A stretch of 64,000 nt of DNA from positions 62,428-126,427 of the forward strand of contig JAEUTI010000008.1 in NCBI GenBank assembly GCA_016788065.1, written 5' to 3'. Positions 45,004-55,018 of the stretch are shown here, piece after piece; position 1 is the stretch's first letter; each line of letters starts with the position of its first letter. The notes beneath the pieces are model-generated. The model had not been told where the DNA came from and made no database searches. It saw only the letters and a list, made by a program, of their open reading frames with translations. Both the position numbers and the translations under genes were made by a program. Origin of the DNA: Bacteroidia bacterium. GTDB lineage: Bacteria; Bacteroidota; Bacteroidia; AKYH767-A; OLB10.

Positions 45004-47595
45004 TCAGTTTAGAATGAGTTTCGAAGTGTGAATGTACTGATCATTCTGTACTTTCACAAGATACATTCCTGCATCTAAATTTGATGTGTCAATCCTTTCA
45101 CCGGATTTATAGTCTCTAATCTCTTTCACTATTTTTCCGGAAATATCAAATATTGAAATTTGTTGAATGGAATTGTTCCCTGAAATAATGTGGAAGTAAT
45201 TTTTCGCAGGGTTAGGAATAAGTTGATAATTTCCAGCCGTTCCTTCCGAAATGCCTGTTGGTGCTACTACAAGATTTGTGGTAGTGTTGGTAATAATCGG
45301 AGCATTGAAATCGAAGTAAATTGCAGCGGTGTTTTGAATGGTTTGGCCTACGTTTAATCCCGGATCAATTTTCACTTTGTATTGTACATATCCGTGGCTG
45401 TTAGGTTCATCATTGGTTGAATCGGGCAGGTTGATATTTGGGAAATTGAATTTTATTACGTTGCCAATAACCTGAGTAAAAACATCGTGACTTGATTGTA
45501 AATAAGTGAATGTTGACTCCTGCAGTTTGGCATCCAGGGTATCTGAAATCACAATGTTCAGAGCAGGAGCATTCCCGGTGTTTTGAAAGTGAATGGTATA
45601 GGTTATCCACTCAGCAGTATTTGCAATAATATTCACCGGATTAGCTTCTTTGAAATTTGGATCAAAACTGTTCCAGACAGTAAAACAATGCGTATAGCTG
45701 TTATTCAAGGGATTTAAATCACTTGAAAGTAAAGTCACATTAACAGTAAAACATACATCGGGAATACCAAGTGTATTGGTATCGGTGGTCATGTAAAATT
45801 TAAAGGCATTATAAATATCGATAGCACCAAAATCAGCAATGTTATAAGTAAGTGTGTTGGGAGTTACAACCGGCACTTCACTTCCCGGGAAGATTCCGGC
45901 AAATTGAGCAGGACCAGCAAAGAAAACAGTAACAGTCCCTGAAGTTCCGGATGCACAATTCAAATTATAAACCTGTGCAATATCACCCGCAATGACATTC
46001 AAAAGTGTAGTTTGTGTAGGTCGGAATATTCCTGAGTCCTGAACAATAGTGTGAATTCCTAAATCATCCTGAATTTTACATTGCAAACCGAAATCCATAT
46101 TTAAATCAACAGAATCAAGTGCAGTAAGAATAGATTGATGCTCACCTGAAGGTGGACACAACACTTCAAAAGGCATATTCGTGGTATCAACCGAATACGT
46201 ATAAGTCCCTAATGGAACTTCGAAATCGTATTGACCACTTGGTAGTGTAACATTCTGTTGAATAAGATTCCCGGATTGATATAAATTAATTTTAACAGAA
46301 TTTGATACCGATTCACCCGGATCATCATTGCAGTTAGTGTTGTTATCGGCATACACTTTACCGGCAATGTTTAAATAAAAATCGCAGGCGTTGGAATTGA
46401 AAATATCGCAAACAGGGAAAGCGGACAATGGAGGTTGGCTCTGAGTTACATGTCCATAATTTGGAATACAATTTACTGAAGTATTCTGCCAGGAGAAATA
46501 GTTGATCCTTTTTAATTTCGGCAAACAATATAACATAGGATTGTTATCGAGATAGCAATAACCAATAGAGTCAGGCAATTCTGGTATTTGCATTACATTA
46601 CTATTTGTTATTGATAAAAATGTTACAGTATTGGGTATGTCAGGAATGGTTTGAATTAAATCATTATTGATTACAGTAAGCCATTCCAGATTACTAGGCA
46701 AGATAGGTATGTTAGATACCACATCATTTTCTCTAAGATCTAATTTGATAAGCGAATTGGGAAAAGTAGGTAAAGTTGTCAAATCCGAATGTTCTAAGGT
46801 TAGCGTTTCAAGATTTGGAGGAAGTATGGGTGTCACTATAAACCCCGGATTTCCAAAGCTCAATGAAGTGATGCTTGGGGGTAATGCTGTTAAACTGTCT
46901 AATAAACAATTGTTAACAAACAAGGTTTTAAGTGTAGAAGGCAACAATGGTAAATTTGAAAGTGATGTGTAATTTGCCTGCAGACTTAGGAGTGTTGAAG
47001 GAAGGCTGGGCAATGATTGTATTGGATTGATACCACAGTTAAGGCTCAATAAATCAGGAGGCAATACCGGGAGGCTGATGATTTGATTATTGAATACCAG
47101 CAAATAGCGCAACGTTGCTGGTAATGATGGCAAGGAGGTTAAATAATTTATATTAGCAATTAGGTTTTTAAGATTTGCCGGTAAAACTGGTAGATTATTT
47201 AATAAATTCTGTTGGCAATCAAGATATTCAAGTGTTGGTGGAAGCTCTAAAATAGTAGTTATGTTATTGTCAAGACAATTTAAGAAAATTAAACCCGGAG
47301 GAAGTTCATTGATGGAAGTCAGATTATTATTTTGGCAATAAAGTGTGTCAAGACTATCAAAAAATTGAATTCCGTAAAGATCAACTATGTTTTTATTTCC
47401 ACAATTTAAATAGGTAGCTCCTGTGATACCAGAACAAGTAGTATCCATTTGGTTGCCATTCATACACGAACCAAAATTAGTTTGTAAATAGGTCACAAAG
47501 TTCGCATCAGGAATGGTTACCCATTGGGCTATCGTTAAATTTGAAAACCCCACCAAAAAAATTGACATAATGCAGATGGTAGCTATTTTTTTCAT
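45004..47595 (-). CDS. Secreted leucine-rich-repeat protein (IpaH/YopM-style LPx LRRs) with a beta-rich region and a type-A T9SS C-terminal domain
   Basis: Signal peptide MKKIATICIMSIFLVGFSNLTIAQ. About 15 repeats of ~20-22 aa read L..L.C..N.LTSLP.LP..L. A long Thr/Asn-rich beta region follows. The C-terminal …LIPNPAKNYFHIISGN…ISIFDISGKIVKEI…LDAGMYLVKVQNDQYIHTSKLILN matches the type-A CTD. Confidence 0.7.
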   Translation of the reverse strand: MKKIATICIMSIFLVGFSNLTIAQWVTIPDANFVTYLQTNFGSCMNGNQMDTTCSGITGATYLNCGNKNIVDLYGIQFFDSLDTLYCQNNNLTSINELPPGLIFLNCLDNNITTILELPPTLEYLDCQQNLLNNLPVLPANLKNLIANINYLTSLPSLPATLRYLLVFNNQIISLPVLPPDLLSLNCGINPIQSLPSLPSTLLSLQANYTSLSNLPLLPSTLKTLFVNNCLLDSLTALPPSITSLSFGNPGFIVTPILPPNLETLTLEHSDLTTLPTFPNSLIKLDLRENDVVSNIPILPSNLEWLTVINNDLIQTIPDIPNTVTFLSITNSNVMQIPELPDSIGYCYLDNNPMLYCLPKLKRINYFSWQNTSVNCIPNYGHVTQSQPPLSAFPVCDIFNSNACDFYLNIAGKVYADNNTNCNDDPGESVSNSVKINLYQSGNLIQQNVTLPSGQYDFEVPLGTYTYSVDTTNMPFEVLCPPSGEHQSILTALDSVDLNMDFGLQCKIQDDLGIHTIVQDSGIFRPTQTTLLNVIAGDIAQVYNLNCASGTSGTVTVFFAGPAQFAGIFPGSEVPVVTPNTLTYNIADFGAIDIYNAFKFYMTTDTNTLGIPDVCFTVNVTLLSSDLNPLNNSYTHCFTVWNSFDPNFKEANPVNIIANTAEWITYTIHFQNTGNAPALNIVISDTLDAKLQESTFTYLQSSHDVFTQVIGNVIKFNFPNINLPDSTNDEPNSHGYVQYKVKIDPGLNVGQTIQNTAAIYFDFNAPIITNTTTNLVVAPTGISEGTAGNYQLIPNPAKNYFHIISGNNSIQQISIFDISGKIVKEIRDYKSGERIDTSNLDAGMYLVKVQNDQYIHTSKLILN

Positions 47596-47831
47596 GGCGT
47601 ATGAATTTAGTCAAATGTAATAAAAATAACTAAGTTAAGTATTTGATATGCAGCATTTTATTAACAATTTTTCACCATAAAAATTTGTGTGTTCGACACT
47701 GTTTTTTTAAAGTTAGCCAAATGTATTATAAGCTAACATGTGACGAATTCATCTGAAATTCAGATTATTATCCATCAATTTTCACAAATTTGCATGTTTA
47801 ACTTACCTTTACCAGCATTCATACCAGAATT

Positions 47832-48773
47832 ATGATTCTTAACATAAAAAATGTCACGAAACAGTACGCTACTCATAAGGCACTCGACCGTGTTTCGATG
47901 GAAGTGCCCAAAGGCAGTGTATTCGGTTTACTTGGACCCAATGGTGCAGGTAAAACCTCGCTTATCAGAATCATCAACCAAATTACAGCACCCGATGAAG
48001 GTGAGGTTTGGTTTAACGGCGAGAAACTCACTCAAAAGCATATTGGCAGTATCGGTTACTTGCCTGAAGAACGTGGTCTGTATAAGAAAATGGAGGTGGG
48101 AGAGCAGGCATTGTATCTCGCACAGCTAAAAGGAATTAGTCGACAAGATGCTGTTACCAAATTAAGGTATTGGTTCGATAAATTCGAGCTGAATGGCTGG
48201 TGGAGAAAAAAAGTTGAAGAACTAAGTAAAGGAATGCAACAAAAGGTACAATTTATAATTACTGTTTTGCATGAACCAAAACTCCTCATCTTAGACGAAC
48301 CATTCACAGGTTTTGATCCAATAAATGCAAATCTGATTAAAGATGAATTGTTAACACTTAAAGAAAAAGGTACCACCATCATTTTATCAACTCACCGGAT
48401 GGAATCAGTTGAGGAGTTATGCAGTCACATTGCACTCATTAACCGCTCCAATAAAATACTCGACGGTGCTGTGACTGATATCCGTAAACAATTCAAATCG
48501 GATAAATATGAAATCGATTACAAAGGAAATGGAATAGCATTTGCCAATGCCTTGTGGGCAGGATTTGAGTTGCTTTCACATGAACCACATGGTGATTTAA
48601 TGAGAGCTGTTATTAAGATGGGTAATGGTGCAAAAACAAATGATTTGCTAGCCGCTCTTATCCCAAATGTCGAAATTCATTCATTCCGTGAAATAGTTCC
48701 CGGTATGAGCGATATTTTTATATCTATAGTTAAGGAAAATAATTTAATGGAACCTGTAGCAAACGACTTATGA
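47832..48773 (+). CDS. ABC transporter ATP-binding protein (ABC-2/NatA-like, with a C-terminal DUF4162-like domain)
   Basis: Walker A GLLGPNGAGKTS, the LSKGMQQKV signature and Walker B LILDEPF. The stop overlaps the permease start. Confidence 0.9.
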   Translation: MILNIKNVTKQYATHKALDRVSMEVPKGSVFGLLGPNGAGKTSLIRIINQITAPDEGEVWFNGEKLTQKHIGSIGYLPEERGLYKKMEVGEQALYLAQLKGISRQDAVTKLRYWFDKFELNGWWRKKVEELSKGMQQKVQFIITVLHEPKLLILDEPFTGFDPINANLIKDELLTLKEKGTTIILSTHRMESVEELCSHIALINRSNKILDGAVTDIRKQFKSDKYEIDYKGNGIAFANALWAGFELLSHEPHGDLMRAVIKMGNGAKTNDLLAALIPNVEIHSFREIVPGMSDIFISIVKENNLMEPVANDL

Positions 48774-50104
48774 GCATAATTACACTTATTATCAAACGCG
48801 AATATCTGACTCGTGTTCAGAAGAAGTCATTTATCATTATGACTTTGCTGGGTCCTATTCTCATGGCTTCCATTTTCATTATTCCGGTGCTGATGGCCAA
48901 ATATGATGAAAATGAAGTCTCCAAAATTCAGGTGATCGATGAATCCGGTATGTTTAAAAATAAGCTTACCGATTCTCAAAGTATGGCCTTTGAATTAGAC
49001 ACGTTTTCTCTGCCCGTTGCTAAAACTATTTTTGATCCCGAGAAACACACAGCCATTCTCTACATTCCGGAAAATGTAATGACTAATTCATCTTCTGTAA
49101 TGTTATTCTCTGCCAAGCAACCTAACATTAACCTGGTAACTACAATTGAGCGTACCATTCAAAAGGAAATTGAAAATGTGAAGCTCAAAAATCAGGGGAT
49201 CAATCAGGAGACTTTGGATCAAATTAAAACTAAAGTTAAAATCAATACCCGAACGCTAACCGATAAAGGTGAAGAAGAAACCAATGCAGGACTAACAACA
49301 GCTGTAGGACTTATTGGTGGGTTATTGATTTACATGTTTATCTTCCTTTATGGTGCTCAGGTGATGCGGGGTGTTATTGAAGAAAAAACAAACCGCATTG
49401 TCGAAGTTATTATATCCTCTGTTCGCCCTTTTCAGTTAATGATGGGAAAGATTATAGGAATAGCATTGGTAGGATTAACACAATTTCTGCTTTGGATTAT
49501 TTTAACAATGACTATCTCGACTGTTGTTACCAGTCTTTTTGTCGATAAAAAACAAATGCAGGAACAAATGATGAGCCGACAATCTCCGCTTGGCACACCA
49601 TTGCCGGAATCAGTTGAAGATGGTTCCAAGGCTGCTGAAGATAATGTCACTGCCTCTATTTTCGGATCTTTGGAATCCCTCAACTTCCCCTTGCTGATAG
49701 GAGCATTTATTTTTTATTTTTTGGGTGGTTATTTGTTATATGGTGCTTTGTTTGCTGCGATTGGTGCCGCTGTTGATGGCGAATCTGATACACAGCAATT
49801 CATGTTGCCGATTACCATTCCTTTGATACTTTCATTTATAGTTGCTCAAAGCATTCTCCAGAATCCGGAAAGTAAAATAGGTTTCTGGTTTTCTATGATA
49901 CCTTTCACTTCTCCGGTGGTGATGATGGTGAGAATCCCTTTTGGTGTTGCACCATGGGAAATTATTTTGTCGATGGCTCTTCTGGTTTTAGGTTTTATAG
50001 GAACTACCTGGATCGCCGGCCGCATTTACCGAACCGGAATTCTCATGTATGGTAAAAAAGTAAATTGGAGAGAATTGGGTAAATGGCTATTTTACAAAGA
50101 ATAG
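48770..50104 (+). CDS. ABC-2 family transporter permease (NatB-like)
   Basis: 444 aa with an N-terminal TM, a large periplasmic loop and five C-terminal TMs. It is translationally coupled to the ATPase. Confidence 0.75.
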   Translation: MSIITLIIKREYLTRVQKKSFIIMTLLGPILMASIFIIPVLMAKYDENEVSKIQVIDESGMFKNKLTDSQSMAFELDTFSLPVAKTIFDPEKHTAILYIPENVMTNSSSVMLFSAKQPNINLVTTIERTIQKEIENVKLKNQGINQETLDQIKTKVKINTRTLTDKGEEETNAGLTTAVGLIGGLLIYMFIFLYGAQVMRGVIEEKTNRIVEVIISSVRPFQLMMGKIIGIALVGLTQFLLWIILTMTISTVVTSLFVDKKQMQEQMMSRQSPLGTPLPESVEDGSKAAEDNVTASIFGSLESLNFPLLIGAFIFYFLGGYLLYGALFAAIGAAVDGESDTQQFMLPITIPLILSFIVAQSILQNPESKIGFWFSMIPFTSPVVMMVRIPFGVAPWEIILSMALLVLGFIGTTWIAGRIYRTGILMYGKKVNWRELGKWLFYKE

Positions 50105-50151
50105 TATTTTATTGATATTTGTTTGGGAATTTGTTTTAATTTTTTAACTTC

Positions 50152-51093
50152 TTGCCTATGAAATTGGCAGTACTTGATTTAGGTACAAATACTTTTCATC
50201 TGCTTATTGCGGAAGTGAAAAAAGACTGTACCTGGAGTAAAGTATTGAATGAAAGAGTCACCGTAAAATTAGGCAAAGGCGGAATAGGCAATAATTTCAT
50301 TACCAAAAGCTCCTATATCAGAGGCATGAAAGCCTTGGAGAGGTTTAGCTCTGAAATCAAGAAACATAAAATAAAGAAAGTATTTGCCTTTGGCACCGCA
50401 GCTCTTCGGAATGCTCAAAATGGCCCCGATTTTGTTAAAGAAGCCCGTAGCAAATATGATATAAATATTCATCTGATAGATGGTATTAAGGAAGCTGAGT
50501 TTATTTGTGATGGTGTCAGACAAGCAGTTAAATTGGGGACCGAATGCGCACTTATTATGGATATAGGTGGGGGCAGTGTTGAATTTATTATTGCTGACCA
50601 GAAAAAAATATTCTGGAAGCGAAGTTTTAAAACCGGTGCAGCTTTATTACAAGCCAATTTTCCTGTGTCGGATCCAATGAAAATTTCTGAACGCCGTAAA
50701 ATTGAAGCCTTTCTTGCTGATGAATTTGTACCTTTGTTTGATGCAGTTCGCAAGTATAATCCAGTGAAGCTGGTGGGTGCCGCAGGTTCATTCGAAACGT
50801 TTTCATCCATGATTGCATTTCGATTTAAACAGAAAACTACATCCAGTAGTAAATTGGAAAAGAAGCTTCACTGGACTCATGTTCGGAAAATTTATCAGGA
50901 ATTGATAACTTCTACGACTGAAGAAAGAAAAAAAATGAAAGGTCTCGTGAAAATGCGGGTTGATATGATTGTTATGGCATCACTTTTGCTCCATGTGGTA
51001 TCTTCCAAAACCGGTCTGAAGAATCTGATTGTTTCCTCCTATTCCCTGAAAGAAGGCGCCCTCTATCAAATAATTAATAAAAATAAATTCTAA
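50152..51093 (+). CDS. Ppx/GppA-family phosphatase (exopolyphosphatase / guanosine pentaphosphate phosphohydrolase)
   Basis: LAVLDLGTNTFHLLIAEV… and …IMDIGGGSVEFII… are the ASKHA-fold Ppx/GppA motifs. Confidence 0.85.
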   Translation: MPMKLAVLDLGTNTFHLLIAEVKKDCTWSKVLNERVTVKLGKGGIGNNFITKSSYIRGMKALERFSSEIKKHKIKKVFAFGTAALRNAQNGPDFVKEARSKYDINIHLIDGIKEAEFICDGVRQAVKLGTECALIMDIGGGSVEFIIADQKKIFWKRSFKTGAALLQANFPVSDPMKISERRKIEAFLADEFVPLFDAVRKYNPVKLVGAAGSFETFSSMIAFRFKQKTTSSSKLEKKLHWTHVRKIYQELITSTTEERKKMKGLVKMRVDMIVMASLLLHVVSSKTGLKNLIVSSYSLKEGALYQIINKNKF

Positions 51094-51095
51094 AA

Positions 51096-51158
51096 ATCCT
51101 TAATCCTTAATCCTTAATCCTTAATCCTTAATTCATAATCCTTAATCCTTAATCCCTA
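51096..51158. repeat. Heptanucleotide microsatellite (ATCCTTA)n, about 9 units (two degenerate), filling the spacer between ppx/gppA and the sigma-54 activator start
   Basis: Directly visible as aTCCTTAATCCTTAATCCTTAATCCTTAATtCaTAATCCTTAATCCTTAATCCcTAATCCTcc. The tract ends about 11 bp before the ATG at 51170. Confidence 0.9.
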
Positions 51159-51169
51159 ATCCTCCCACA

Positions 51170-52333
51170 ATGTCTCGCATATTAGTAATTGACGACGAAA
51201 AAAGTATTCGTAATACCCTCAAAGAAATTCTTACCTATGAAGGGTTTGAAGTAGTTGAAGCTCAGGATGGAATGGAGGGTCTCAAATTTGTTGAGAAAGA
51301 AAAATTTGATATAATTTTATCAGATATCAAAATGCCTAAAATGGATGGCATTGAAGTATTGGAAAAGCTTCAGGAACTTTCACCTGAAACGCCTGTGGTA
51401 ATGATTTCCGGACACGGAAATATTGATACTGCAGTTGAGGCTATTCGTAAAGGTGCTTTCGATTATATTTCAAAGCCCCTCGATTTAAACCGGATGCTGG
51501 TTACGATCCGAAATGCAATGGATCGCTCTTCATTGGTGAAGGAAACAAAAACACTGAAGCGTAAAATCTATAAAACAACAGAAATTGTTGGGGAGTCAGA
51601 GCCTATCCGTGTTATTAAAGAAATGATAGATAAGGTTGCACCTACTGAAGCCCGAGTACTCATAACCGGAGGAAATGGTTCAGGAAAGGAACTTGTTGCC
51701 CGATGGATTCATGAAAAAAGTAATCGCTCCGCAGCCCCAATTGTGGAAGTTAATTGTGCCGCTATCCCTTCTGAACTAATCGAAAGTGAATTATTCGGTC
51801 ATGAAAAAGGATCTTTTACTTCGGCAATTAAACAACGAATCGGGAAGTTTGAGCAGGCTAATAATGGAACTTTATTCCTCGACGAAATTGGAGATATGTC
51901 TCTTTCAGCTCAGGCGAAAGTGTTGCGTGTTTTGCAAGATGGAAAAATTACAAGAGTAGGAGGGGAGAAAGATTTTTCGGTGAACGTAAGAATAATTGCT
52001 GCAACCAATAAGGATTTGAGAAGTGAAATTGAGAAAGGTAATTTTCGGGAAGATCTCTATCACCGTTTAAGTGTGATTGTTATACACGTGCCTTCTCTGA
52101 ATGAAAGGAGAGATGATATTCCACTTTTGGCAGATTATTTCCTACAGCTTATTTGTCAGGAATATGGTATGCCAGTTAAAGAGTTTACCAAAGATGCCTT
52201 GGAAGAACTTAAAAAAATCGACTGGACCGGAAACATCCGTGAATTGCGAAATGTGGTGGAGCGATTGATTATTTTATGCGATAAACAGATCACAGCCAAA
52301 GATGTGGTTAGTTTTGGTGTTGTGAGGAAGTAA
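51170..52333 (+). CDS. Sigma-54-dependent response regulator (receiver + AAA+ sigma-54 activation domain) lacking a C-terminal HTH
   Basis: Receiver (ILVIDDEKSIRNTL…DIKMPKMDG), Walker A GGNGSGKE, and the sigma-54 contact motif present as GSFTSA (canonical GAFTGA). The protein ends about 25 aa after the AAA+ domain (…ELRNVVERLIILCD…VVRK). Confidence 0.85.
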   Translation: MSRILVIDDEKSIRNTLKEILTYEGFEVVEAQDGMEGLKFVEKEKFDIILSDIKMPKMDGIEVLEKLQELSPETPVVMISGHGNIDTAVEAIRKGAFDYISKPLDLNRMLVTIRNAMDRSSLVKETKTLKRKIYKTTEIVGESEPIRVIKEMIDKVAPTEARVLITGGNGSGKELVARWIHEKSNRSAAPIVEVNCAAIPSELIESELFGHEKGSFTSAIKQRIGKFEQANNGTLFLDEIGDMSLSAQAKVLRVLQDGKITRVGGEKDFSVNVRIIAATNKDLRSEIEKGNFREDLYHRLSVIVIHVPSLNERRDDIPLLADYFLQLICQEYGMPVKEFTKDALEELKKIDWTGNIRELRNVVERLIILCDKQITAKDVVSFGVVRK

Positions 52334-52408
52334 TGAACAACCATTAAGAGGGCTGTTGAGTGCTTCCTTAGCAACCGACAGCCTAAGTCTTAGGTTGGAT
52401 TAAATTTC

Positions 52409-55018
52409 TTACAACTCCGAAATCATTTTGTGACCCATTTTGATCGCTGCATCTAAACCATTGTTGTTTTTTCCTCCTGCAGTTGCATAAAATGGCTGCC
52501 CGCCACCTCCACCTTGAATTTCTTTAGCGATGTTTCTGATCAGATTTGATGCATTGATATTTTTTTCTTTCACCAAATTGTCAGAAACTATCAATGAAAG
52601 ATGTGGTTTGCCATCGACTTCAGCACCCAGTAAAAGAACTAAGTTTTCTATCTGATTGCGCAGATCAAACGAGAGTCCTTTGATTGCATCAGCAGAAGAT
52701 AATTCAATTTTTTCGCAGATTAGATTCATTCCATTCAAAGAAACGGTCTTTGTTTTCAACTGCTCCCGTATTACAGAAGCTTTCTCAATTAAAAATTGCT
52801 CCAGTTGTTGTTGCAGCGCAGATTTTTCATCTAATAGCGACTGAATGCCTTTTAACGGCTCATTTGGATTCTTCAATAGCAACTTAATTTCATTCAGCTC
52901 TTTGGTCTGCTGACGTATTAAGTTTTCAGCTGCTTTACCGGTTATCGCTTCAACCCTTCGGACACCTGCTGCTACAGAACTTTCAGAAATAAACTTAAAT
53001 AAACCTATTTCTCCGGTCGATTGCACATGGGTACCACCACACAACTCAACTGAATATCCCGGATCAAAAGTTATAACCCTTACATATTCACCGTACTTCT
53101 CACCAAAAAGTGCCATAGCTCCCATTTCCATAGCTTTGGCAACCGGTACATTGCGTTGCTCGTTTAACCGGATATTTTCTCTTATCTTTTCATTCACTAT
53201 TATTTCAATGCGCTCCAGTTCCTCATCGGTAACTTTTGTAAAATGCGAAAAATCGAATCGGGTTACATCTTCATTCACAAGCGAACCTTTTTGAGCAACA
53301 TGTTTCCCTAAAACATCTCTCAGTGCAGCATGCATTAAATGTGTTGCAGAGTGATTGGATGTGATTGCTTTTCTTCTTCCTGAATCGACTGTTGCTGTAA
53401 AGGATGCCGAAAGATTTTGTGGCAGCTTTTCAGCATAGTGTACTATGAGATTATTTTCTTTTTGTGTGTCTACTATCTGAATAGTTTCCTTTTCATTCGA
53501 TAAAGTTCCCGTATCTCCAACTTGTCCGCCACTCTCTGCATAAAATGGAGTTACATTCAAAACTAACTGATAAAGTGTTTTGCCTTTGGTTTTTACTTCG
53601 CGATACCGAACAATTTCTGAATTGGTAATCAGGTCATCGTACCCTGTAAAATTAACAGGCTCTTCTTCCCGAACCTGAATCCAGTCACTGAGGTCCTTCT
53701 CAGCATCTGCTCTGGAACGGGTTTTTTGCTCCAGCATGGCTTTATTAAAACCATCCATATCAACATCAAGTTGTTTCTCGCGAGCCATCAATTGTGTTAA
53801 ATCAATTGGGAATCCGAAAGTATCGAAGAGTTCAAATGCAAATTTTCCATCCACTGTTTTTCCTTCATACTGATCAAACTTCTTGATTCCGGTTTCAAGG
53901 GTTTTTAGGAAGGATATTTCTTCTTCCTGAATTACCCTCGCAATGAAATCTTGTTGAGAATCCAGTTCGGGAAACTGACCGGCAAATGATTTCGCAAGTA
54001 CAGGAACCATATTACACAATACAGGTTCTCTGAAATTTAAAAAGCTATAAGCATAACGTACTGCTCTTCTCAGAATTCTTCGAATGACATAACCTGCCTT
54101 ATTGTTCGAGGGAAGTTGTCCATCAGCTATGGCAAATGAAATAGCTCTTATATGATCTGCCATAACACGCATGGCAATATCAGTTTTTTCTGAAGAACCA
54201 TATTTAATGCCGCATTTGCTGCTGATAAATTGAATCATCGGCTGAAAAACGTCGGTGTCATAATTGCTGGTTTTGCCCTGCAATGCCATGCACAAGCGCT
54301 CAAATCCCATTCCGGTATCAACATGTTTGGCCGGCAATGGCTCCAATGATCCGTTTGCCAGTCTGTTGAATTGCATGAATACATTATTCCAGATTTCAAT
54401 TACCTGAGGGTGGCTTTCATTTACCAAAGTTTTCCCATCTACTGCTTTTCTTTGCGCATCGGTTCTTAAATCGACATGAATTTCGGAGCAAGGGCCACAG
54501 GGTCCGGTGTCGCCCATTTCCCAGAAATTATCCTTTTTATTGCCTTTAAGGATACGGTCTTCAGCAATCCATTGCTTCCAAAAATCATATGCTTCCTGAT
54601 CGAAATCTAATGATTCCTTCGCATCGCCCTCAAAAACAGTTACATACAATCTATCTTTAGGGATTTTGTAAACATTGGTCAGTAGGTCCCAGGCCCAGGC
54701 AATGGCATCTTCTTTAAAATAATCGCCAAACGACCAGTTCCCAAGCATTTCAAACATCGTATGATGGTAGGTGTCAACTCCAACTTCCTCAAGATCATTG
54801 TGTTTGCCTGAAACTCGCAAACATTTTTGGGTATTGGCAATACGCTTATACTTGACCGGACTATTGCCCAGGAATATATCTTTGAACTGGTTCATTCCCG
54901 CATTGGTAAACATCAAAGTGGGATCATTTTTGATCACCATCGGTGCTGAAGCCACAATTTGATGGCCTTTAGAAGCGAAATAATCGAGGAACGCTTTACG
55001 AATTTCTGTTGCTGTCAT
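52409..55018 (-). CDS. alaS: Alanine--tRNA ligase
   Basis: 869 aa. Class II aaRS core, an editing domain (HSATHLMHAAL…, …CGGTHV…) and a C-terminal DHHA1 region. Confidence 0.95.
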   Translation of the reverse strand: MTATEIRKAFLDYFASKGHQIVASAPMVIKNDPTLMFTNAGMNQFKDIFLGNSPVKYKRIANTQKCLRVSGKHNDLEEVGVDTYHHTMFEMLGNWSFGDYFKEDAIAWAWDLLTNVYKIPKDRLYVTVFEGDAKESLDFDQEAYDFWKQWIAEDRILKGNKKDNFWEMGDTGPCGPCSEIHVDLRTDAQRKAVDGKTLVNESHPQVIEIWNNVFMQFNRLANGSLEPLPAKHVDTGMGFERLCMALQGKTSNYDTDVFQPMIQFISSKCGIKYGSSEKTDIAMRVMADHIRAISFAIADGQLPSNNKAGYVIRRILRRAVRYAYSFLNFREPVLCNMVPVLAKSFAGQFPELDSQQDFIARVIQEEEISFLKTLETGIKKFDQYEGKTVDGKFAFELFDTFGFPIDLTQLMAREKQLDVDMDGFNKAMLEQKTRSRADAEKDLSDWIQVREEEPVNFTGYDDLITNSEIVRYREVKTKGKTLYQLVLNVTPFYAESGGQVGDTGTLSNEKETIQIVDTQKENNLIVHYAEKLPQNLSASFTATVDSGRRKAITSNHSATHLMHAALRDVLGKHVAQKGSLVNEDVTRFDFSHFTKVTDEELERIEIIVNEKIRENIRLNEQRNVPVAKAMEMGAMALFGEKYGEYVRVITFDPGYSVELCGGTHVQSTGEIGLFKFISESSVAAGVRRVEAITGKAAENLIRQQTKELNEIKLLLKNPNEPLKGIQSLLDEKSALQQQLEQFLIEKASVIREQLKTKTVSLNGMNLICEKIELSSADAIKGLSFDLRNQIENLVLLLGAEVDGKPHLSLIVSDNLVKEKNINASNLIRNIAKEIQGGGGGQPFYATAGGKNNNGLDAAIKMGHKMISEL

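Follow-up and report, generated by a model that had tools for sequence, protein, structure and literature searches.

The window, that is, the whole 64-kb stretch of DNA analysed, contains four genes on one strand that encode, in order, the ATPase of an ABC transporter, an ABC-2 permease, an exopolyphosphatase of the Ppx/GppA family (ppx), and a response regulator with a sigma-54 AAA+ domain (Table 1). The assignments are backed by Pfam and NCBIfam profile matches. An earlier note on this DNA had named ppx/gppA and a sigma-54 activator gene as the neighbours of a 7-bp repeat, and both names were borne out, by the matches to PF02541 and PF00158 (8e-70 for the latter), respectively. The four genes keep their strand and order in orthologous loci from 100% down to 78% regulator identity. 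The longest open reading frame of ppx starts at a TTG (50152), and the ATG at 50158 gives the 311-aa product called in other assemblies. The context is Bacteroidota-like: a neighbouring protein has a Por_Secre_tail domain, the GC content is about 0.39, and the database names read ‘Bacteroidia bacterium’. That neighbour, an 863-aa protein with LRR, SdrD_B-like, DUF7619, and Por_Secre_tail (T9SS C-terminal sorting) domains, is encoded just upstream of the ABC genes on the opposite strand (45004-47595) and marks the Bacteroidota origin of the DNA.

The regulator lacks a C-terminal HTH, as its alignments to the NtrX/NtrC profiles end at about position 375 of 452-463. Alignments to the NtrX, NtrC, and AtoC profiles likewise end about 75-85 positions short of the profiles' C-terminal HTH. 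Regulators of this type without a DNA-binding domain are widespread in Bacteroidota (thousands of matches, 383-391 aa), and there they are often encoded by the final gene of an ABC-2 transporter (-ppx) cluster.

Table 1. Features of the ppx-regulator locus, with positions in the window.
Feature	Position	Strand	Description
CAAATTTG	47785-47792		One-mismatch TAnnTTTG-like box ahead of the ABC genes
ABC transporter ATPase gene	47832-48773	+	Probable operon start
ABC-2 permease gene	48770-50104	+	4-nt overlap with the ABC ATPase gene
GATATTTG	50114-50121	+	One mismatch to TAnnTTTG; 37 nt before the ppx ATG
Exopolyphosphatase gene, Ppx/GppA family	50158-51093	+	311 aa; PF02541 6.5e-40; TIGR03706 7e-64
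G-free run	51059-51171	+	113 nt; no longer one on either strand of the window (second longest, 60 nt)
Whole ppx-regulator spacer	51094-51169	+	76 nt; direct reading of the sequence
Heptanucleotide array	51096-51165	+	10 units: ATCCTTA x5, ATTCATA, ATCCTTA x2, ATCCCTA, ATCCTCC
Response regulator gene	51170-52333	+	387 aa; REC 4-113, Sigma54_activat 139-305, AAA_lid_14 312-378

Read directly from the sequence, the spacer between ppx and the regulator gene is composed of AA, ten heptamers, and CACA. Of the 76 nt that separate the ppx stop codon (TAA, 51091-51093) from the regulator ATG (51170), the array takes up 70. The stop codon directly adjoins the array, which begins 2 nt past it and ends 4 nt ahead of the ATG. 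TRF detected the repeat at 51095-51163 (period 7, 9.9 copies, 90% matches, score 117), and direct reading and TRF together confirmed the claim that a 7-bp array fills the 76-bp spacer almost completely. Two details of the claim needed adjustment. The heptamer array stands, and its count of about nine copies becomes ten when the degenerate last unit is included; the unit ATCCTTA, described as pyrimidine-rich, is merely 4/7 pyrimidine, and the absence of any G is more striking. The array is the sole strong tandem repeat within the window, where the runner-up has a TRF score of 41. A two-unit pattern, with up to two mismatches allowed, matched nine times in the window, always within the tract, versus 1.09 expected, and none of 100 shuffles attained nine matches. 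Upstream of the array, an A/T-rich stretch without G encodes the C-terminus of Ppx (...YQIINKNKF), and TRF also flags it as a weak 13-nt repeat (51068-51097).

We compared the array among 16 assemblies that contain both flanks and encode an identical or 99-100% identical regulator, from the same or sister lineages. The arrays have 6, 7, 10, 11, 12, 13, or 15 units, and the corresponding spacers are 48, 55, 76, 83, 90, 97, and 111 nt long, all 6 mod 7. Such changes by whole units fit the prediction of slippage. The comparison among strains suggested in the earlier note thus gave a range of 6-15 units beside regulator proteins of 99-100% identity, and the supposed proneness to slippage was confirmed as length polymorphism. 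Nine distinct alleles were found in the 16 assemblies, and they also differ in the order of the variant units (ATTCTTA, ATCCCTA, ATTCATA). In one pair (L220 and L221), the regulator proteins are identical and the arrays are equally long, with the unit variants rearranged. Five assemblies without any mismatch in 1814 flanking positions share one 15-unit allele, and three others, again with 0/1814 mismatches, share one 7-unit allele, a comparison that rests on consensus assemblies, which conceal minority length variants, and a stability that may partly reflect samples from one plant or time series. In another pair, a 2/1814 difference in the flanks accompanies a single unit substitution. These results indicate that turnover of the array is gradual, not fast. 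Interruptions in microsatellites stabilise them; the longest perfect run of units is five in the allele of the window and three in the 15-unit allele.

Beyond these lineages, the species representative JADJOZ01 (L041; about 89% DNA identity) has 13 units at the orthologous place. A species with a 93%-identical regulator (L205) has a 376-nt spacer of compound heptamers (L205 1125-1500), which is also polymorphic, with unit counts that vary between samples (L205, L206-L214). This compound tract begins with about 40 AGTGNNN units, continues with ATTTATC/ATTTATA, and ends with ATTCTTA adjoining the ATG; the AGTGNNN units have four fixed and three variable bases and an apparent super-period of 28 nt. 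No array was found in the orthologues of six lineages with 91, 89, 88, 87, 82, and 78% regulator identity, where the spacers are 29, 49, 11, 93, 30, and 21 nt of unique sequence, respectively, and hence 11-49 nt in five of the six. Since the array is present at 93% regulator identity and above and absent at 91% and below, we infer that it originated within one clade and has turned over since. One ATTCATA is present in the 29-nt spacer of the 91% lineage, and the units ATTTATA, ATTCATA, ATTCTTA, and ATCCTTA are single-substitution steps apart. These sequences hint that the array might have originated from a local proto-repeat.

Heptamer arrays are not peculiar to this locus. A scan for three exact units in one genome per species found at least 114 stretches in many phyla (L011-L124). 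Among the matches listed, arrays of the unit in its rotation AATCCTT number at least 12 in JADJOZ01 and occupy four to six loci in each of several metagenome-assembled genomes of Elusimicrobiota, Selenomonadales, and Bacteroidota. In the array-bearing loci listed, period 7 accounts for 287 entries, more than half of them with other units, versus 30 entries of period 6 and 37 of period 8. The same excess appeared in unselected orthologous loci of Bacteroidota (386 kb), with 23 entries of period 7 versus 5 of period 6 and 6 of period 8 among the matches listed. The window itself contains one period-7 array alone, versus many heptamer units in JADJOZ01 and KLAP29. The arrays of the unit listed are nearly all intergenic and are not confined to one kind of intergenic region: by crude ORF calls, the two neighbouring genes are co-directional for 59 arrays, convergent for 26, and divergent for 11. 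For the 59 listed arrays with co-directional neighbours, the mRNA reads AAGGAUU in 41 and AAUCCUU, as in the window, in 18. Of the 12 arrays found in JADJOZ01, the one at the orthologous locus alone adjoins a start codon. In viral contigs, the unit forms 17 stretches, versus 21, 6, and 56 for three composition-matched control heptamers. The period-7 excess, the placements, and the comparable counts of the controls suggest generic heptamer slippage that fills tolerant non-coding DNA rather than a function specific to this unit.

We also considered that the unit is special because AUCCUUA is similar to the 3' end of 16S rRNA and has a Shine-Dalgarno-like complement. This was rejected for the present locus because both orientations occur, variants interchange freely, and the control heptamers are as common in viral contigs. 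The opposite mRNA sense, AAGGAUU, is itself Shine-Dalgarno-like, and many of the listed arrays lie within 10 nt of a stop or start codon.

In most prokaryotic genomes, long SSRs are most often built of heptanucleotide units, whose origin has been ascribed, as a proposal, to slippage of the polymerase (Mrazek 2007, as cited in PMC4679880 and PMC4692102). Intergenic examples of such LSSRs include GGGAATC of Xanthomonas and GGGGATT of Nostoc (PMC4692102), and the heptameric STRR sequences of the cyanobacterium Calothrix are cited in the same source. A literature search for ATCCTTA and its rotations as a bacterial repeat gave no relevant match. The tract belongs to this long-known class of intergenic heptanucleotide LSSRs: it had every feature of the class that was tested, namely the length, the non-coding site, the variability, and the period-7 excess in the lineage. 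As in other LSSRs, a 7-nt unit is repeated in tandem in an intergenic region, to a length far beyond chance; close relatives differ in the length and sequence of the repeat but keep the same flanking genes; and the host genomes have many heptamer arrays, for which slippage is the proposed origin. The tract differs in that the AATCCTT unit is G-free on one strand and without G-quadruplex potential, in that the host is an uncultured, wastewater-type lineage of Bacteroidia, and in that the array fills the entire intercistronic spacer of a conserved operon.

Taken together, the tract is rather probably a slippage-generated heptanucleotide VNTR in the intercistronic spacer of a conserved operon, which arose in one Bacteroidia clade. 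Heptamer slippage would have created the array in the short ppx-regulator spacer of that clade, where turnover would continue, and heptamers would accumulate wherever non-coding DNA tolerates them, in the host lineage and in many others. We consider the tract selectively near-neutral and not a maintained device. If this is merely a habit of slippage, the tract would be useful as a VNTR strain marker for an abundant uncultured lineage of wastewater Bacteroidia. The excess of heptamers in prokaryotes has been on record since 2007, and the graded alleles of 6-15 units together with the array-free relatives make a clean natural test case.

The conserved gene order, the short spacers, and the missing promoter motif argue for co-transcription of ppx and the regulator gene. 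The regulator gene is most likely the last cistron of an ABC-ABC-ppx-regulator operon, and the tract would be transcribed as intercistronic RNA within the operon mRNA, acting neither as a promoter element nor as an on/off switch. Any effect of the tract on the regulator would probably be quantitative and exerted after initiation. With a longer tract, the regulator start would lie farther from the ribosome that terminates on ppx, and 48-111 nt of naked, C-containing, G-free RNA would be offered to Rho; both could lower the output of the regulator. In the distant orthologues, which are 80 metagenome loci with 64-74% identity among the matches listed (L125-L204), 14 ppx-linked cases were listed; measured from where the ppx match ends, the regulator ATG follows after 8-26 nt in 7 cases and after 50-94 nt in the other 7.

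The tract sequence is translationally inert. The spacer (51094-51169) has TAA in all three frames on both strands, and direct reading of its plus strand found no ATG, GTG, or TTG; because seven is not a multiple of three and either strand of the unit includes TAA, none of the six frames stays open for more than 21 nt. The predicted RNA is largely open. Folds of 171 and 601 nt gave z-scores of 0.23 and -0.06, respectively. The array is unpaired in both the minimum-free-energy and the centroid structure of the 171-nt fold and in the centroid structure of the 601-nt fold, where the minimum-free-energy structure pairs merely part of its 3' end. A search for inverted repeats found no complementary arm, the only match being one of 17 nt and 76% at a distance of 628 nt. 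A scan of 49500-53000 against Rfam (E<=1) found no family, apart from a meaningless snoRNA match (E=0.5).

Rho loading sites are C-containing, G-poor, unstructured, untranslated stretches of RNA of about 70 nt or more. The G-free run that covers the array starts 35 nt inside the ppx coding sequence, and its region also has the maximum of C minus G among 70-nt windows on either strand. In composition, the predicted mRNA of the tract resembles such a loading site (rut). This composition derives automatically from the unit sequence and hence gives no independent support to the idea of Rho loading. A rut-like role is also not general to the class, since the G-rich sense AAGGAUU is commoner in mRNA than its complement (41 versus 18 among the matches listed).

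On these properties a functional reading can be built, in which selection keeps the tract and the number of units tunes the amount of sigma-54 activator made from the operon mRNA, so that lineages with different unit numbers are differently tuned. We consider it unlikely that the tract is such an adaptive rheostat. The tuning could act through translational coupling and the distance for reinitiation, through Rho-dependent polarity, or through ribosome loading on an unstructured, pyrimidine-containing leader. In favour of a rheostat, the tract has been kept at one locus across the clade with nine alleles of more than two-fold length range, it always adjoins the start codon, and its composition is extremely G-free and rut-like. 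Its persistence across about 10% nucleotide divergence, ending 4-12 nt before the ATG, could point to selection and not to mutational self-renewal. On the other hand, the same genomes hold similar arrays between convergent genes and in long intergenic stretches, where such a role is impossible, a sister species tolerates a compound tract of 376 nt, orthologues function with unique spacers of 11-49 nt, and the arrays are stable within clones.

There are precedents for tuning of this kind. Upstream of hmw1A and hmw2A of H. influenzae lies an (ATCTTTC)n SSR of 13-38 copies that varies between strains (PMC2651432; PMC12721329). It is transcribed in the 5' UTR, expression is inverse to its length, and the mechanism is a long hairpin of about 10 repeats and a G-rich arm, which is cut by RNase III (PMC12721329). 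As a pyrimidine-rich heptamer SSR upstream of a gene, it offers the strongest precedent for an effect that is both quantitative and post-transcriptional. It differs from the tract in that the complementary arm and the hairpin are absent at the ppx-regulator locus, and in that the hmw product is a surface adhesin, made by a host-adapted pathogen, for which switching within populations has been demonstrated, whereas here a conserved cytoplasmic regulator and stability within clones are seen. A hairpin and RNase III model after hmw was ruled out for the tract by the 171- and 601-nt folds and the inverted-repeat search. As cited in PMC4679880, the (AGAT)n repeat in the 5' UTR of M. catarrhalis uspA2 has 6-23 copies and an expression optimum. 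According to that citation, it is likewise a strain-dependent tandem repeat between promoter and start codon, but it is a tetranucleotide upstream of a monocistronic surface-protein gene, and its effect was shown experimentally.

A bolder form of the same idea is that the tract is a heritable, length-coded attenuator, in which the unit number sets the level of the HTH-less sigma-54 activator via Rho loading, lost coupling, or both. In a broader version, an element of hairpin plus array, found in JADJOZ01 and KLAP29, would disperse the AATCCTT arrays of the genus as a mobile microsatellite seed. Both proposals appear doubtful. If the attenuator were real, microsatellite length would by itself give strains different set-points of a sigma-54 regulon. 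If the unit number altered regulator output at all, it would be a case of microsatellite-encoded quantitative regulation outside host-adapted pathogens, and the regulation would lie inside an operon, and not in a promoter, of a phylum whose translation initiation is unusual. Weak use of Shine-Dalgarno sequences is typical of Bacteroidota, in keeping with the remark on this organism in the earlier note.

The element just mentioned is a dispersed composite in the sister genomes JADJOZ01 and KLAP29, in which an AATCCTT array comes after two segments that form hairpins, GGCGGATCAGAGATCCGC and GTCAGGATCAGAGATCC... (L044 7283-7619 and 2780-2880; L097 790-1110; L108 1520-1720). In L044, it is itself repeated at a higher order, in four copies of about 100 nt. 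The long non-coding regions around it are mosaics of a shared set of 7- and 8-mer arrays such as ACATCAGC, AAATCACC, AAAGTTG, AGATGAT, AATATTC, and others. Arrival of the array in the window together with this hairpin element was rejected, as no copy of GTCAGGATCAGAGATCC was found there with up to three mismatches.

The unit could instead be bound by an RNA- or DNA-binding protein, such as S1 or a cold-shock protein, and the genes preceded by arrays would then form a post-transcriptional regulon; we regard a binding-site array of this kind as improbable. The model for it is TAACTGA, which is repeated in marine Beggiatoaceae, cyanobacteria, and five Bacteroidetes (MacGregor 2015, PMC4679880). 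These repeats often immediately precede start codons, occur in mixtures with other heptamers, are missing in close relatives, and break assemblies, and in BOGUAY most of the 169 TAACTGA sets are just before start codons, which suggests a regulon; recognition by a protein has been proposed for these repeats (PMC4679880). The tract and the TAACTGA repeats have several features in common: stop codons within the unit, a forward orientation a few nt from the start codon (4 nt here), a host with rare Shine-Dalgarno sites, contigs that often break in the repeats, and long mixed-heptamer arrays in some Bacteroidetes that are missing from close relatives. In JADJOZ01, the unit occurs at 12 or more places, and several other genomes have several places each. 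However, the unit sequence is unrelated to TAACTGA, and placement at a start codon was found in JADJOZ01 at the ppx-regulator locus alone. Of the features of a TAACTGA-type network, forward placement near a start was therefore present here, and such placement of most genomic copies was absent. The other arrays in JADJOZ01 are found between convergent genes, in long intergenic stretches, or joined to the dispersed hairpin element, both orientations occur among the listed loci, the variants ATTCTTA, ATCCCTA, and ATTCATA and unrelated units interchange freely, and the unit is no commoner than composition-matched controls.

The earlier note had placed the tract within or between promoter elements of the regulator gene, where steps of 7 bp would alter the geometry and cause on/off phase variation. 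Tract length does differ between strains, and promoter-embedded heptamer SSRs are known in H. influenzae (PMC2651432). Nevertheless, this reading is very improbable. No Bacteroidota -7 box (TAnnTTTG) was found in or beside the tract in a scan from 51000 to the ATG that allowed any first base, and neither a -33 element nor a sigma-70-like pair was found in or adjoining it. A scan around the tract for sigma-70-type promoters and terminators gave counts at shuffle expectation, with none in the spacer. The tract nearly fills the gap between the ppx stop and the ATG and leaves no space for a 5' UTR below a promoter, so that a change of promoter spacing per unit finds neither a motif inside the tract nor room outside it in the spacer. 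Furthermore, operon synteny is kept with short spacers in the relatives, clonal assemblies have identical arrays, and arrays of the unit are rarer in divergent (11) than in convergent (26) regions among the matches listed. Of the features of a contingency locus in a promoter spacer, neither a position between or over recognisable promoter elements nor a contingency-type target gene was found: the product is a conserved response regulator and has no surface, restriction-modification, or other contingency function. An architecture for phase variation is also at odds with identical arrays beside identical flanks and with the interruptions by variant units; no rapid switching was seen in the consensus assemblies. 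In sum, the observation of a repeat is confirmed and its interpretation in the earlier note is supported in part: the repeat is variable between strains, and the evidence points away from a promoter-spacing phase switch.

A promoter may lie elsewhere. A match to TAnnTTTG 440 nt upstream of the tract, inside ppx, is at chance level; a promoter inside the ppx coding sequence is possible. By its consensus match, GATATTTG is a tentative candidate for the promoter of ppx and the regulator gene, and CAAATTTG is the corresponding box ahead of the ABC genes (Table 1). In the distant orthologues listed, TAnnTTTG is absent within 80 nt of the ATG from 12 of the 14 linked to ppx; of the 65 without ppx ahead of them, 21 have the box, in most cases 25-36 nt upstream of the start codon.

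That the tract is an artefact of assembly or sequencing is effectively refuted and has next to no probability: some Logan short-read contigs (L008-L010 and L209-L214) do terminate within it, but many independent assemblies from JGI, ENA, and NCBI run through it and into both flanks, it is found at the same position in independent JGI, NCBI, ENA, and Logan assemblies, and its allele structures are consistent and lineage-specific. Such contig ends are expected where a repeat exceeds the assembly k-mer and are no evidence of length heterogeneity. They are a warning that heptamer tracts break short-read assemblies.

Several other placements of arrays were observed. In L052, L026, L117, L124, and L057, arrays start past a terminator-like GC hairpin and T-run of a convergent neighbour, as in GCCGGCTAAAAGCCGGC-TTTTTTT-AAGGATT..., and positions just past terminators may favour the seeding or survival of arrays. 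Around the distant orthologous regulator, heptamer or octamer arrays unrelated to the present one lie just downstream of the gene in L136, L142, L156, L162, L166, and L184 and just upstream of it in L130, L139, L151, L166, L171, L185, and L192. In L185, the array is AATTCTT x4.7 and ends 12 nt before the regulator ATG.
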